Source: a virus
Taxonomy: Duplodnaviria > Caudoviricetes
Direction: 5' to 3' (one strand)
IMG/VR virus record: IMGVR_UViG_3300043467_000990
Coordinates: 1-31,938 of that record
DNA length: 31,938 bases
Both the position numbers and the translations under genes were made by a program. The notes beneath the pieces were generated by a model that made no database searches, was not told the origin of the DNA, and saw only the letters and a list, made by a program, of their open reading frames with translations. Below, in pieces: positions 6,277-22,764 of this stretch (its first letter is position 1; the number at the start of each line of letters is the position of its first letter).

Positions 6277-6521
6277 TAGTGATTTTTGTAGTATAGTTGT
6301 GCAAGAATTTGCGCTTTGTTTGAATGCGCGTTTAAGTCTGTTTCGTAGCCGTCGACGAATGCTTTCTTCAATAGTGCTTCTTCTTCTTCGACGAGTCCGT
6401 CAAATTGCTTGTGAAGTCTTCTCACTTCTTCTGCTTTCAAAGTGTCACCACATTCTTCATGGATGCTTGCAAGATTCGTCAAAAATCTATCGACGAACTT
6501 CATTGGGGTTTGTTTTCTCAT
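6273..6521 (-). CDS. Hypothetical protein (same paralog family)
   Basis: MRKQTPM...EEALLKKAFVDG...AQLYYKNHY. Confidence 0.65.
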   Translation of the reverse strand: MRKQTPMKFVDRFLTNLASIHEECGDTLKAEEVRRLHKQFDGLVEEEEALLKKAFVDGYETDLNAHSNKAQILAQLYYKNHY

Positions 6522-7029
6522 ATTGTTCTTGTACTAGTTGTTTCATTAGTTTTACTACGCGTAAGATTTCTCGTACGCTTATTCCTGTTTTGCGATGTAG
6601 AGATCGTGCGCTATTGCCTTCGAGCCACATCTTGAAGAGTTCACGCTCGTACCAATGAGAAGACTCAATGATAAAGTCGTACGCTCGTATTTTGCTTCTC
6701 TCTTGCTCATAGTCTTCTATTTGTACTAGATGGTCTTTGTCATCACTTTGTAAGTTACACTCATACACATCAACGCTGTCGTAGATACGATTTTGTTGAA
6801 ATGGGTGACGATTGCCATTGATCGCGGTGTGAAGTACTTTGATAGCCCACCATTGTAAGTAACCGTCGTTGTGTAACTTCTCAACATATGCGTCATCTTT
6901 TTCGAGTAGTAGTAGAAAAAAGTATTGATATAGTTCTCTTGCTAGTTCTTTGTTCTTTGAGATGCGAAGACACGTATCGAATACCCACTTTTGAGTTGTT
7001 AGATTTTCGATGATTTGCGACTTCTTCAA
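6487..7029 (-). CDS. ECF-type sigma-70-like factor (candidate late sigma)
   Basis: 180 aa; region-2-like KNKELARELYQYFFLLLLE...YLQWWAIKV and region-4 HTH ERELFKMWLEGNSARSLHRKTGISVREI; TTG start with its own promoter. Confidence 0.7.
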   Translation of the reverse strand: MKKSQIIENLTTQKWVFDTCLRISKNKELARELYQYFFLLLLEKDDAYVEKLHNDGYLQWWAIKVLHTAINGNRHPFQQNRIYDSVDVYECNLQSDDKDHLVQIEDYEQERSKIRAYDFIIESSHWYERELFKMWLEGNSARSLHRKTGISVREILRVVKLMKQLVQEQYEKTNPNEVRR

Positions 7030-7034
7030 CGATG

Positions 7035-7065
7035 CAAATATAGAAAAAGTTTTTGTATTTACAAA
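7035..7065 (-). promoter_or_regulatory. Bacteroidota housekeeping-sigma promoter
   Basis: TTTG-N19-TATATTTG, 5 nt before the TTG start of the sigma-like gene. Confidence 0.85.
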
Positions 7066-7102: not shown

Positions 7103-7612
7103 TCATATCTCTTCTTCGTACGCAATACATCGCTCTCTTCTTTCAAGATGTGAATTGATGACGATAGATTCTTCGTTGCTGTAAGAATCCAATAGTTCAA
7201 GAGTTTGTTGATAGGTTTTGGCGAAGTTTCTGTCATAGTCTATGAGATCTTGTGTTTGTCTGACGCTGTGAATGATTGTCGAGTGATCGCGATTTATGAT
7301 ACGACCTATCGAGTCAAGTGACATACCTAGAGTCTTTCTACAAACATAGTTGAAAGTGTGTCTAGCGTACAAGATGTGTTGTTTGCGTATACGAGAGTAG
7401 ATGTCGTCGGGAGTGATTTGATACACTTGACAAACGACGCGCATCGCATCTGTCCATTTTGCTTTTGTGTTTCTCACGTCAATCTTTGGTCTCAAAATCT
7501 CTCTCTTCAAATCTTGAATCAATCTCTCGTAGTGATTCTTTTGTTCGTTGATTACAAGTCGAAGACGACGATTCTCTTGCTTTGCGTTGTGTAAGTCTTG
7601 ATAGTGATTCAT
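7103..7612 (-). CDS. Coiled-coil plus DnaA domain-IV-like HTH protein
   Basis: RKQHILYARHTFNYVCRKTLGMSLDSIGRIINRDHSTIIHS matches the DnaA C-terminal signature; no AAA+ domain. Confidence 0.8.
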   Translation of the reverse strand: MNHYQDLHNAKQENRRLRLVINEQKNHYERLIQDLKREILRPKIDVRNTKAKWTDAMRVVCQVYQITPDDIYSRIRKQHILYARHTFNYVCRKTLGMSLDSIGRIINRDHSTIIHSVRQTQDLIDYDRNFAKTYQQTLELLDSYSNEESIVINSHLERRERCIAYEEEI

Positions 7613-8466
7613 ATTTTTTTGTGTTTAGGGTCTAGAATCATTGGCGTTGTATACACCCATTTGACTCTATGATGAAGACGATTTGTTGTGAAACCCATCA
7701 TTGATACTTGAATAGAAGACGGATGATACAAGACGCTATGAAACGACTTGACATATGTACCACTGCCTAAATATGCGTCAGTCATACCGCCCTTTTGGCT
7801 CTGAGTCGCCGCTTGTTCTAAGCCAATGAATGGCAAAGTAAGAAACAAATGACCTCGACTGCCTAGAGTTGTATATGTATTTACGTCTTCATTGATTGAG
7901 CCAAAGAATTGAAAATGTCTATCTACGGAACAGATAAAACTATTCATACATTTTCTCGCGTTGTGTTTGTAATTGCTGATCATACCACAGCCCTCACCAC
8001 CGATGAAGTCACCGCCTTGAGCAAATGCTACGCTTGTGCAATTTGTAGTTTTGAAAAACTCAAGATACATCTCAAAGTACTTGTTGAGATTCTTTGCGTA
8101 GCCACTTGTCATATACTTGCCATCAATAAATCGATAACGGAATGAAGTATAATCGTCATCAAGTTGTATGAAGTATTTGATACCTATTTGTTTTGCGATA
8201 TTAAAACAAGCGTTTCTAGCGTGAATGATGACTTTGCGATTGTCAAAATTGTTTCCCTCGTCTATTGAATCAGCCATCGCTTTCTTATCAAATACTTTTA
8301 TCATATTCTCGCCGTACTTGCGTAAGTAAGTATCAAGTGTTTTGTCTTCGTTGTCAACGATTAGATAAGTTGCGCCTGTATAGCCACACTTTTTGAGTGT
8401 CTGTAATGTCTTGACGTTGTCAGGTCTACCGTGAGTCAAAATGAATACCGCAAAATTATTGTCCAT
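7609..8466 (-). CDS. GT-A glycosyltransferase, TET-associated (TAGT)/GREB1-like family
   Basis: FAVFILTHGRP, ARNACF, FIQLDDD, MNSFIC, GSINED, QSQKGG; start taken as the ATG at 8466. Confidence 0.7.
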   Translation of the reverse strand: MDNNFAVFILTHGRPDNVKTLQTLKKCGYTGATYLIVDNEDKTLDTYLRKYGENMIKVFDKKAMADSIDEGNNFDNRKVIIHARNACFNIAKQIGIKYFIQLDDDYTSFRYRFIDGKYMTSGYAKNLNKYFEMYLEFFKTTNCTSVAFAQGGDFIGGEGCGMISNYKHNARKCMNSFICSVDRHFQFFGSINEDVNTYTTLGSRGHLFLTLPFIGLEQAATQSQKGGMTDAYLGSGTYVKSFHSVLYHPSSIQVSMMGFTTNRLHHRVKWVYTTPMILDPKHKKI

Positions 8467-8854
8467 ATTCTTCAAGGTATTGAGTTTTGATATCGTCACA
8501 TAGTTTGATGTAGCCGTATTGAATTGCTTTCTCAAAATCTATGATCACAAGAGCAGAGCGTTCCATCAAGTGTTGCATTTCTTTACTAGCGTGCGCGTAG
8601 TAGTCAGCGATTTTCTCGTAGTTGAAAACAAGATGTCTCATAGTAGCGTCAATCAAAAACGACTTCTCTTCTTCGCTCAGCGATGACGTTTGAATCTCTT
8701 TGATGAGACGTTGACTTTTTGACTTGTCACAGAGTTCAAGAATGTGAGGCTTTCTGTTCTTAGGTTCGTAGATAGGCGCTTCAATCTTGCTTGTGTACTT
8801 TTGTTCTTCTTGATTCGGTGCGTAGTCTGCACCAAACAAATTGATTTGTTTCAT
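8456..8854 (-). CDS. Hypothetical protein translationally coupled to the TAGT-like gene
   Basis: YTSKIEAPIYEP...RHLVFNYEKIADYYAHASKEMQHLMERSALVIIDFEKAIQYGY; overlaps both dnaB and the GT. Confidence 0.75.
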   Translation of the reverse strand: MKQINLFGADYAPNQEEQKYTSKIEAPIYEPKNRKPHILELCDKSKSQRLIKEIQTSSLSEEEKSFLIDATMRHLVFNYEKIADYYAHASKEMQHLMERSALVIIDFEKAIQYGYIKLCDDIKTQYLEEYGQ

Positions 8855-10083
8855 ATGCGTTCTTTGTATTCTGTTAGTTTGCCTTCAAAAGTTGTAGGTA
8901 TTGTGCAACATTCACCGTTGCGATTCTTTGCGATAATGAGTTCGGCTTCTTCGACGTCTGGCTTCTCTGTGTCATAGTACGCAGGTCTAAAAGGGAACAT
9001 CACAATATCTGCGTCTTGTTCTATCGCACCACTCTCTCTCAAGTCACTCAACATAGGTCTCTTGTCTTGTCTCTCTTCGCTCTTACGAGATAATTGAGCA
9101 AGAACGATGACCGTGATTTTCAACTCTTTAGCAAGTAGTTTCAAACCTCGTGAGATTTCTGCTATCTCTTGCTCGCGATTTGCTTTCGTACCTTTGATCA
9201 ATTGTATGTAGTCGATGACAAGCAAGTCTAGACCTTTGCGAGACTTGTGTAGTTTCGCTTTTGCTTTGATCTGCGCGATAGAAGTATCAACGTCATCGTC
9301 AATGTAGAACTCTATCGATTGATGGTTCGCTACGTGTATCACTTTGTCTATCTCGTTTTGTTCTAGACGACCATTGCGAATCTTCCAATTCTCGATGTTG
9401 CCTATTAATGACAAGTATCGTTTTGCGAGTTGTTCGTTGCTCATCTCAAGCGACAAGAAGAGTGCTTTGTGATTGTACTTCGCAAAGTCTTTTGTCAGCG
9501 TCAGAGCGATTGCTGTCTTTCCCATACCGGGTCGACCTGCTACTACAATCAAATCTCCTGCGTTGTAACCACCGATGTACTTGTCTAGATATCGCCATCC
9601 TGTTTGTTTGCCTGTAAGCGCGCCACCATTCATACTATTCTCGACAATTTGATCGACGACTTTGTTCGTCACTTTGACTATCGAGTCTGGTTCTTTGTGT
9701 GTCGAGAATGTACTCTCTTCAAGAATCGATTGAATGTCTTTGACAATATCGCCCAAATCTTTTGTCAAGTTCAAACGAGTCACTTTGTCGACAAGAGTTG
9801 TCTTGATGTACTCGTGTTCAAGAGTCTTCAAGTGTACGTTGATATTTGTGAGACCGCTTGCTTCTTGCTGTATTTGAATAATTTGTAGCAACTCTTTGCC
9901 TTTGAAGTTCTTTGATAGAGTCATCATATCAACAGGCTCGTTGTTGTAGTACAAGTCAGTCATCGCACCTACGACGCGACGATACAAGTCTTGTGTGAAC
10001 CAATTCTTGTTGATGCGTGGTAAGAAATGCCTTGCGTCATCATAGAATAGCAAGTTCGATAGTATCATTTGTTCAAGATTCAT
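8851..10083 (-). CDS. dnaB: Replicative DNA helicase, DnaB family
   Basis: AGRPGMGKT, FLSLEMS, VIDYIQL, LAQLSR, DLRESGAIEQDAD, IIAKNRNG. Confidence 0.97.
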   Translation of the reverse strand: MNLEQMILSNLLFYDDARHFLPRINKNWFTQDLYRRVVGAMTDLYYNNEPVDMMTLSKNFKGKELLQIIQIQQEASGLTNINVHLKTLEHEYIKTTLVDKVTRLNLTKDLGDIVKDIQSILEESTFSTHKEPDSIVKVTNKVVDQIVENSMNGGALTGKQTGWRYLDKYIGGYNAGDLIVVAGRPGMGKTAIALTLTKDFAKYNHKALFLSLEMSNEQLAKRYLSLIGNIENWKIRNGRLEQNEIDKVIHVANHQSIEFYIDDDVDTSIAQIKAKAKLHKSRKGLDLLVIDYIQLIKGTKANREQEIAEISRGLKLLAKELKITVIVLAQLSRKSEERQDKRPMLSDLRESGAIEQDADIVMFPFRPAYYDTEKPDVEEAELIIAKNRNGECCTIPTTFEGKLTEYKERI

Positions 10084-10661
10084 AGTGTTGCAAGTTTATG
10101 TGTATTTGTTGAGACTTTCAAGTTGTTAGGTTTCCAAGTGCGAACTGCTGACTTCCAATCTTTCATTTTGTTTTTACCTATCATCCATCCCTTAGACTCG
10201 TAAAAGTCAAAGAACTTGTTTGAGACGTCATTCATATTGATTGAATCCATATATTCACTCAACTCTTCAATCGTTGGTTTTGTGAAACGCGTACTCTTTT
10301 TATTATTTATATCTTCATTTTCATTTTCATTTTCCATATGTTCTTCATATGATTTTGATATGTTATTCATATCTTCTTTCTTCTTGCGATTGTTTGATCT
10401 TGATTCGCTGTATTTCTTTCTCTTCTCAAACTCTTCTCTCATACGCAAATTGTAGAATCCTTCTTCGCATTTCTCGAACTTGTCAAAGATGTCTTCATCA
10501 TATGAATCACATATCTTCAACATATCTTTCTCACTCAATATACCTTTTTGATGTTGTATACAAAGTAGACGAATGTACTTGCCTACTTGTTCGTTTGACA
10601 TCAACGTCGTGCCTGTTAAGAAGTCACTCGTATAAAATAACACTGCCGGGTCTTTGCTCAT
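10080..10661 (-). CDS. Phage replication initiator (DUF1376/YdaU-like N-terminus)
   Basis: KDPAVLFYTSDFLTGT...GKYIRLLC, low-complexity linker, C-terminal FTKPTIEE...FFDFYESKGW...MKDWKSAVRTW; directly upstream of dnaB. Confidence 0.8.
   Translation of the reverse strand: MSKDPAVLFYTSDFLTGTTLMSNEQVGKYIRLLCIQHQKGILSEKDMLKICDSYDEDIFDKFEKCEEGFYNLRMREEFEKRKKYSESRSNNRKKKEDMNNISKSYEEHMENENENEDINNKKSTRFTKPTIEELSEYMDSINMNDVSNKFFDFYESKGWMIGKNKMKDWKSAVRTWKPNNLKVSTNTHKLATL
10335..10373. repeat. Iteron-like array A: 4 hexamers at exact 11-bp period
   Basis: CATATG 10335, CATATG 10346, GATATG 10357, CATATC 10368; next to an AT-rich tract at 10296-10334. Confidence 0.7.
10488..10526. repeat. Iteron-like array B: 4 hexamers at exact 11-bp period
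   Basis: GATGTC 10488, CATATG 10499, CATATC 10510, CATATC 10521. Confidence 0.65.
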
Positions 10662-10673
10662 TTTTTTGTAATT

Positions 10674-10762
10674 AAAAAGCCCTCACACAAATACCGAAGT
10701 GCGAGTTCGATACTTGCTGAGGGCAAATGTCTTTTGTAGTTGTCTCGCACACAACTCTAATA
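10674..10762 (-). ncRNA. Structured leader/small RNA of about 90 nt: two hairpins with complementary loops and an intrinsic terminator
   Basis: Hairpin 1 AGUUGU-[GUGCGAG]-ACAACU. Hairpin 2 GCCCUCA-GCAAGUAUCGAA-[CUCGCAC]-UUCGGUAUUUGU-G-UGAGGGC-UUUUU. Three G-U pairs form only on the minus strand. Confidence 0.75.
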
Positions 10763-10767
10763 CTTTA

Positions 10768-10798
10768 CAAAAATAGTGTTTTGTAACTAAATTGCAAA
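10768..10798 (-). promoter_or_regulatory. Bacteroidota housekeeping-sigma promoter for the leader RNA and replication operon
   Basis: TTTG-N19-TATTTTTG. Confidence 0.8.
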
Positions 10799-10999
10799 TT
10801 AATCTTTTGTTTGTAGTGAATATCTACCGAAACCTTCTGTCTTGTCGCACACGATATCTAGACCTTCTTGATGTCTGAGAGTGTGTATTCGTGACGCTAG
10901 TCTAAATGTACCGTACAAATTCAATGCTTCGATAGGTGTGATTGACTTGCCATTTAACAAATGAGCCTTCACTTTGTTGAGTTGAGATTCTTTTTTCAT
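10799..10999 (-). CDS. Small winged-helix DNA-binding protein
   Basis: SQLNKVKAHLLNGKSITPIEALNLYGTFRLASRIHTLR. Confidence 0.8.
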   Translation of the reverse strand: MKKESQLNKVKAHLLNGKSITPIEALNLYGTFRLASRIHTLRHQEGLDIVCDKTEGFGRYSLQTKD

Positions 11000-13709: not shown

Positions 13710-13740
13710 CAAAAGTACAACAAATCTTTCACTATGCAAA
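13710..13740 (-). promoter_or_regulatory. Bacteroidota housekeeping-sigma promoter
   Basis: TTTG-N19-TACTTTTG, 6 nt before the ATG. Confidence 0.85.
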
Positions 13741-22738: not shown

Positions 22739-22764
22739 AAAAAAGGGAGAGCGTAAGCCCTCCC
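22739..22764 (-). terminator. Intrinsic terminator after the capsid/tail-tube operon
   Basis: GGGAGGGC-UUAC-GCUCUCCC-UUUUUU. Confidence 0.88.

Follow-up and report, generated by a model that had tools for sequence, protein, structure and literature searches.

A conserved family of predicted kissing-loop leader RNAs upstream of replication genes in integrase-less phages of Flavobacteriia

In Proteobacteria and Firmicutes, temperate phages and plasmids are known to use RNA for immunity and copy control; the C4 RNA of P1 and the CA RNA of N15 are relatives of the CI immunity RNA of P4. In P4, the leader-derived CI RNA terminates transcription of the replication genes (PMC4825925), and in the plasmids ColIb-P9 and IncB, loop pairing in cis turns the initiator on whereas an RNA acting in trans on the same loop turns it off, with the loop setting specificity (PMC4705826). 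The guanidine-IV riboswitch (mepA motif) and its Gd4v variant have two hairpins joined by a loop-loop pseudoknot, with an intrinsic terminator as the 3′ hairpin (PMC11611296, PMC9788692). As described in PMC11611296, the terminator is hindered when its loop kisses the 5′ hairpin, and elongation of the stem in turn hinders the kiss.

Here we analyse a leader found in IMGVR_UViG_3300043467_000990, a 31.9-kb virus record with a completeness rating of 100%, the whole of which (31,938 nucleotides) we call the window. The last 100 bases of the window are repeated at 34-133, the prefix and suffix do not form an exact terminal repeat, and the record is probably a circular assembly with a ragged end. 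It encodes a tailed phage gene set entirely on the minus strand, comprising terminase, portal, Erf, exonuclease, dCMP deaminase, an initiator-like gene, DnaB and a TAGT glycosyltransferase. Promoters in the window match the Bacteroidetes -33/-7 consensus reported in PMC6847099, from which we infer that the host belongs to Bacteroidota.

The leader and its operon in the window

The original prediction described a promoter, a 6-bp hairpin, a 13-nt linker, a 19-bp hairpin and a U5 tract ending 12 nt before an ATG, and all of these elements are present on the minus strand. Together with the neighbouring genes, they are arranged as follows.

10799..10999, minus strand: winged-HTH ORF upstream of the leader (PF14090)
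10795..10798, minus strand: -33 promoter element TTTG (sequence and promoter regex; consensus from PMC6847099)
10768..10775, minus strand: -7 promoter element TAnnTTTG, 19 nt from the -33 element (promoter regex; consensus from PMC6847099)
10738..10756, minus strand: hairpin 1, 6 bp (folding and helix covariation)
10744..10750, minus strand: loop 1, GUGCGAG, the code (sequence)
10725..10737, minus strand: 13-nt A-rich linker ending in UUU (sequence and folding)
10679..10724, minus strand: hairpin 2, 19 bp with one bulge and three G-U pairs, predicted intrinsic terminator stem (folding)
10699..10705, minus strand: loop 2, CUCGCAC, reverse complement of loop 1 (sequence)
10674..10678, minus strand: U5 tract (sequence)
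10662..10673, minus strand: A-rich translation initiation region of rep, 12 nt, with the ATG at 10661 (sequence)
10080..10661, minus strand: replication initiator-like gene (rep), 193 aa (PHROGs primosomal protein, E 7e-6)
8851..10083, minus strand: DnaB helicase (PF03796, E 6.6e-90)
8456..8854, minus strand: ParB-like small ORF (phrog_620, E 1.9e-7)
7609..8535, minus strand: TAGT-family glycosyltransferase (PF20691, E 1.9e-36)

Transcription of the leader would start near 10762, as placed from the promoter sequence, and an A-rich translation initiation region that lacks a Shine-Dalgarno sequence corresponds to the mode of initiation described in PMC6847099. A sigma-70 promoter scan of the window did not report the leader promoter, and hairpin 2 is absent from the list that one terminator scanner returned for the window. 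The predicted 89-nt RNA folds at -31.8 kcal/mol, and none of 200 shuffled sequences was equally stable. The z-score of the RNA is -4.70 versus -1.94 for the opposite strand of the same unit. The two 7-nt loops are exact reverse complements, as had been noted, and the leader is the only two-hairpin site in the window with such loops (found once per strand, at the same site); a strict form of this pattern did not occur in any of 40 dinucleotide shuffles of the window. The 7-bp Watson-Crick kiss has an energy of -10.5 kcal/mol when computed as a duplex. We also looked for distant trans targets in the window, where further copies of either 7-mer occur at chance level (8 vs 4.0 +/- 2.2).

A terminator scan placed no terminator between the winged-HTH ORF and the leader. 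Minus-strand Bacteroidetes promoters were also observed at 13717 and 12267, each with a -7 box that ends 4-6 nt before an ATG, which suggests leaderless early transcripts. Since the leader and a site at 22745 were the only strong minus-strand hairpin-U5 sites that a scan of the window detected, the leader would be expected to halt transcripts from these two upstream promoters as well. A 180-aa ORF elsewhere on the minus strand (6487-7029) has a separate promoter at 7042 and matches nothing in Pfam or PHROGs; by eye it has what we take to be a sigma-factor-like look.

Rep has no Pfam match, and its C-terminal part resembles an annotated replication initiation protein. Iteron-like repeats with 11-bp spacing lie inside rep in two inverted clusters (10325-10386 and 10489-10528) and are also kept in two relatives (L001 and L008). 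These repeats are likely origin iterons, so readthrough of the leader would transcribe the origin too. The ParB-like ORF and the TAGT glycosyltransferase (7609-8854), which directly follow dnaB, form a probable DNA-modification module under the same leader.

Conservation and covariation of the paired loops

Comparison with related sequences indicates that the leader is a real, conserved RNA family. Our starting set consisted of 80 loci with initiator homologues, and among the upstream regions of the 54 with an intact start we found the same two-hairpin layout with different loop pairs. A pattern that fixed only the promoter and loop 1 recovered 79 loci, 48 of which carry the exact complement of loop 1 at 41-44 nt downstream. 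For a wider pattern, 120 matches were listed of an estimated 860 loci. Both hairpins were present together with perfectly complementary loops in 60 of these listed matches and without them in none; 8 others had perfect loops and failed the hairpin filter, and 52 had neither. When members were defined without using complementarity, 86 of the 87 distinct members paired at seven of seven positions by script, and the remaining one also did so once its register was corrected. The distance from loop 2 to the U tract was 18-20 nt in 86 of 86.

We then evaluated covariation in a hand-thinned alignment of 65 of the 87 distinct members, in which one misaligned row was left unscored. All seven kiss pairs were Watson-Crick in each of the 64 scored rows and four of the pairs covary, with a covariation of 0.595 compared with 0.120 in shuffled alignments and at most 0.116 in slid registers. 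Both stems covary as well, including two-sided changes at all six pairs of hairpin 1, and this alignment shows conservation of 90% or more for the UU that precedes the terminator base.

Because three loop positions had been fixed as G, U and A in our early patterns, we also performed a loop-blind scan that used only the promoter and the terminator; 120 matches were listed of an estimated 390 loci, representing 88 distinct elements. In 78 of these 88, the tip of the terminator matched the 5′ part perfectly over 6-9 nt, versus 213 of 4400 shuffles (~5%) and 551 of 7656 swapped pairs (~7%, same-code pairs included). The 78 perfect members of these listed matches use 38 different codes, with no code position invariant. 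The commonest loop pattern, GU-NNN-A-K, fits only 38 of the 78, and an early reading of both loops as invariant, anticodon-like U-turns was thus rejected as an artefact of the search patterns. Conservation of loop complementarity with compensatory change had been set beforehand as one test of the original prediction, and it was observed both in the alignment (64/64) and in the loop-blind set (78/88).

Several other features were consistent across members. A covariance model built ignoring the kiss matches the window together with 46 of the 80 loci with initiator homologues, and 32 of these matches pair at seven of seven positions in register; of the other 15, four pair at six of seven positions, five have fully paired 6-nt loops and six have one G-U pair. 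Kiss energies range from -6.4 to -14.2 kcal/mol with a median of -9.0, 148 of 156 members fold better on the sense strand than on the other, the promoter-to-terminator unit spans ~81-103 nt, and every member has a U tract after the stem, a feature partly imposed by the search patterns. Eight loci with initiator homologues (L032, L034-L037, L039, L040 and L046) have Shine-Dalgarno-type starts with a single hairpin before rep, and the covariance model has no match in them.

The claim that the leader is not a named family agrees with our searches of Rfam 15. At the gathering score there were no matches in the window or in 20 member loci, a search over the element at E values up to 10 gave only weak, unrelated matches, and a search of 16 member loci gave one match, DUF805b, outside the element; C4, c4-2 and IsrK had no match in the window or in these 20 and 16 loci. 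The DUF805b RNA motif (RF02914) lies at L428:815-849, upstream of the ParB-like gene of phage lillamy9-1. We found no description of the family in the literature, and it may be among the 10,006 candidates of PMC10690425, whose supplements are partly searchable.

To describe how the codes change, we compared 52 disjoint close pairs of members, in which two-sided swaps occurred at 33 of 366 kiss pairs versus 50 of 1220 stem pairs (odds 2.3, by a Fisher test that treats sites as independent and on members that had been chosen for perfect pairing). The kiss swap rate is near the single-site rate of unpaired bases (125/1170), and kiss changes show almost no G-U intermediates. In one group of loci (L179, L260 and L353), three codes occur at 2-3% divergence elsewhere. 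When all pairs are considered, code divergence equals background at short distances (0.07 vs 0.06; 0.17 vs 0.16) and lies above it only at 0.2-0.4. The roughly twofold higher rate at which kissing pairs swap relative to stem pairs suggests that the kiss sequence is a specificity code; the paired loop changes might also arise from template switching between inverted repeats rather than from selection.

Carriers and downstream genes

Cultured carriers include phages of Flavobacterium (lillamy9-1 and tooticki6-1), Olleya (Harreka_1), Croceibacter (P2559S) and Cellulophaga (phi19:3, phi13:2 and phi19:1). Each has its own matched code, and several that score weakly by the model were confirmed by reading the loops. 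Phages of the LMO6 and LMO9 hosts carry the code GUGAGACG, GUGAGAAG or GUGGAACG in otherwise close leaders, and one identical leader is common to 28 records. Chance matches were the only result of a blastn search of the element against cultured phages, and a tblastn search with the capsid gave no match. A pattern scan of GTDB yielded 19 matches, 3 of which are true members, all on MAG contigs of 1.5-3.7 kb; a model search of 151 genomes of the genus Flavobacterium found none, but only 26 candidates were scored per genome, so this result shows little.

For gene content, we picked 27 IMG/VR carrier records for length, 24 of which are at least 90% complete; the covariance model matches 26 of the 27, nearly all of them once. 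Consistent with the earlier view that this is a phage type without an integrase, a tyrosine or serine recombinase (PF00589, PF00239) was detected in none of the 27, and HTH_3 in 2; among the cultured carriers, one of five has a PF00589 match. The element is absent from the temperate phage laban6-1, a single case. Lysogen-like immunity or a carrier state, which had also been proposed, is weakened: PMC7077304 calls the mumin phages exclusively lytic, a judgement made there from gene content, and immunity of the lysogen type finds no support, since the description given for cultured carriers is a lytic one. The carriers may be plasmid-type prophages.

ORFs that follow the leader include initiators of the window type and of the DUF6291, Lin1244_N and HTH_36 types; among cluster representatives, others are HNH or GIY-YIG nucleases, methylases, helicases, primase-like proteins and proteins of unknown function. 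The leader and the initiator are separated by a nuclease or small ORF at several loci. The proposal that the element heads a replication operon (rep-dnaB) is borne out in that all 15 of the 27 carriers with a DnaB-type gene have it 1-2.5 kb downstream on the same strand; counter to this role, some members head nucleases, methylases or unknown ORFs and not initiators. Of the 151 members with an ORF, 115 have the ATG 7-12 nt away from where the U tract begins, and the LMO phages have no ATG until well downstream of the stem. Two genomes have two leaders each, 1-3 kb apart and with differing codes (L436:244-350 and L437:203-308 in G178; L427:1097-1190 and 2132-2241), and in tooticki6-1 the additional leader precedes an HNH endonuclease. 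One distant member (L160, or L438:3900-4404) is located near an apparent provirus edge, opposite to the structural genes, and the ORF after it (131 aa) is unrelated to replication.

Proposed mechanism, alternatives and known systems

We consider the leader likely to be a kissing-loop transcription attenuator of the rep-dnaB operon, and code-specific control in trans by the leader RNA is plausible. An alternative antiterminator helix was not found beyond chance (mean -5.2 vs -5.1 shuffled), and a sequence test showed no excess of antisense, convergent promoters (present in 4 of 151 members and in 3 of 123 control regions), which together leave the kiss as the candidate. In the mechanism we propose, loop 1 would catch loop 2 as it emerges from RNA polymerase and thereby block the terminator; the cis kiss and the complete terminator stem would compete, and a strong 7-bp kiss would make readthrough the default by analogy with guanidine-IV, whose kiss hinders the terminator and from which we take the sign of the switch. 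As a 7-bp kiss should form unaided, some input is needed to block it, and the simplest code-matched input would be the terminated leader itself. The diversity of the codes is our reason for proposing binding in trans, in which terminated RNAs of ~90 nt, with both loops exposed, would pair with the loops of leaders still being transcribed, keep the cis kiss from forming and increase termination. The outcome would be a self-reinforcing OFF state with a logic like that of P4, and in a lytic phage the expression of initiator and helicase would be shut off as genomes accumulate. Terminated RNA would further hamper phages of the same code that arrive later or co-infect the cell, and such interference would select for new codes. 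A hairpin whose stem is near the ATG probably conceals the start region as well. By a crude reach calculation, 54-70 of 130 members could still kiss in cis with finished stems and a fully stretched linker, and a released RNA that kisses itself would be a poor trans regulator; trans pairing is also limited to 6-9 bp and must act within ~40 nt of transcription. Overall, we see an even chance that the cis kiss antiterminates and that accumulated terminated RNA competes in trans to switch the operon off code-specifically. The fuller scheme, in which the leader is at once antiterminator, terminator and trans repressor in a protein-free, address-coded feedback that counts genomes, shuts the operon, jams same-code co-infectors and drives dozens of orthogonal codes in virulent Bacteroidota phages, is a tentative one that we think somewhat more apt to fail than to hold.

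The alternative that survives best, which is possible though unlikely, is a kinetic attenuator acting only in cis, with the balance of kiss and terminator setting a readthrough that is fixed or dependent on physiology (elongation rate, NTP, Mg2+, temperature), the terminated RNA being waste and the codes drifting neutrally with the aid of template switching. It requires nothing beyond the features shown, and it is consistent with code divergence that is not above background in the closest pairs, with kiss energies kept within the range given above and with the lytic description of cultured carriers in PMC7077304. Two-sided kiss swaps at about twice the rate of stems and almost without G-U intermediates argue against it, as do three codes at 2-3% divergence and the different codes in both two-leader genomes, though chance predicts the latter too. 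A guanidine-IV-type switch, its kiss stabilised or blocked by a metabolite or by a protein of the phage or the host, would share the two-hairpin, kiss-on-terminator layout and could account for the initial G-U and near-end A of loop 1 kept in 38 of 78 members and for the conserved UU before the terminator base. A structure-specific protein may gate the kiss, but the genes downstream are for replication and not transporters, and we regard this reading as improbable.

It is also quite improbable that the short RNA is itself the product, whether structural, multimerising or a decoy, with its place before rep incidental, or that the 7-mers serve as a DNA operator or are targeted by an antisense transcript. 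A separate promoter and terminator do delimit the unit, head-to-tail loop pairing could give dimers or rings (as in the pRNA of phi29), and the distant member at the provirus edge precedes an unrelated ORF; however, members with different initiator families and from different phage families all keep the element heading the replication operon, the G-U pairs and strand asymmetry favour a sense-strand RNA, and antisense promoters are not in excess. Lastly, a translational switch like that of ColIb-P9 (PMC4705826), with a pseudoknot that opens hairpin 2 to free the initiator start region and with termination secondary, has in its favour the usual proximity of ATG and U tract and the reduction of Flavobacterium initiation by structure near the start (PMC6847099), but it is very improbable given the U tract after every stem (partly imposed by the search patterns), the distant ATG in LMO phages and the lack of an antisense promoter excess.

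If the fuller scheme is correct, its address codes would resemble plasmid incompatibility groups, but for lytic phages, and under the trans control that we favour a phage could use the short RNA it releases to throttle itself or a rival with the same barcode. The family raises the question of why lytic phages would gate replication by a coded RNA, for which timing, competition during co-infection and an unrecognised carrier state are candidate answers. The question is directly testable, as cultured phages on the same two Flavobacterium hosts (LMO6/LMO9) carry three natural codes, and dozens of natural orthogonal kissing-loop attenuators would constitute a part library for Bacteroidota genetics.

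Among known systems, the leader resembles guanidine-IV, its best structural precedent, in architecture and P4 CI or the Inc RNA of ColIb-P9 in proposed logic, and it lacks features that define each of them. Guanidine-IV/Gd4v shares the two hairpins with their loop-loop pseudoknot and a terminator, predicted here, as the 3′ hairpin. It has highly conserved nucleotides around the kiss, whereas the kiss of the phage leader is free, with 38 codes of 6-9 nt (a comparison with published text); moreover, guanidine-IV/Gd4v controls exporters (MATE), acetyltransferases (GNAT) and transaminases, none of which are among our downstream representatives. P4 CI (seqA/seqC) is a small RNA from a replication-operon leader, and promoter and terminator predict such an RNA for the phage leader. 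CI is processed from a longer leader and has two separate target sites, whereas the phage leader would be one unprocessed ~90-nt unit that combines hairpin, target and terminator and has one complementary pair, and P4 is a temperate proteobacterial phage whereas the carriers are Bacteroidota phages with an integrase in 0 of 27. Cis loop pairing upstream of an initiator gene is shared with ColIb-P9/IncB, which differs in using translational control with a leader peptide and an antisense RNA, while the phage leaders show no convergent promoter excess. IsrK of Gifsy-1 is a short terminated leader that acts in trans on its own readthrough transcript, as proposed here; in contrast to the phage leader, it activates antirepressor translation via long duplexes and has no loop-loop code. 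Judged from these comparisons, the phage leaders are a family new to Rfam and a compact version of such RNA-based systems, carried by integrase-less phages from several Flavobacteriia phage families.
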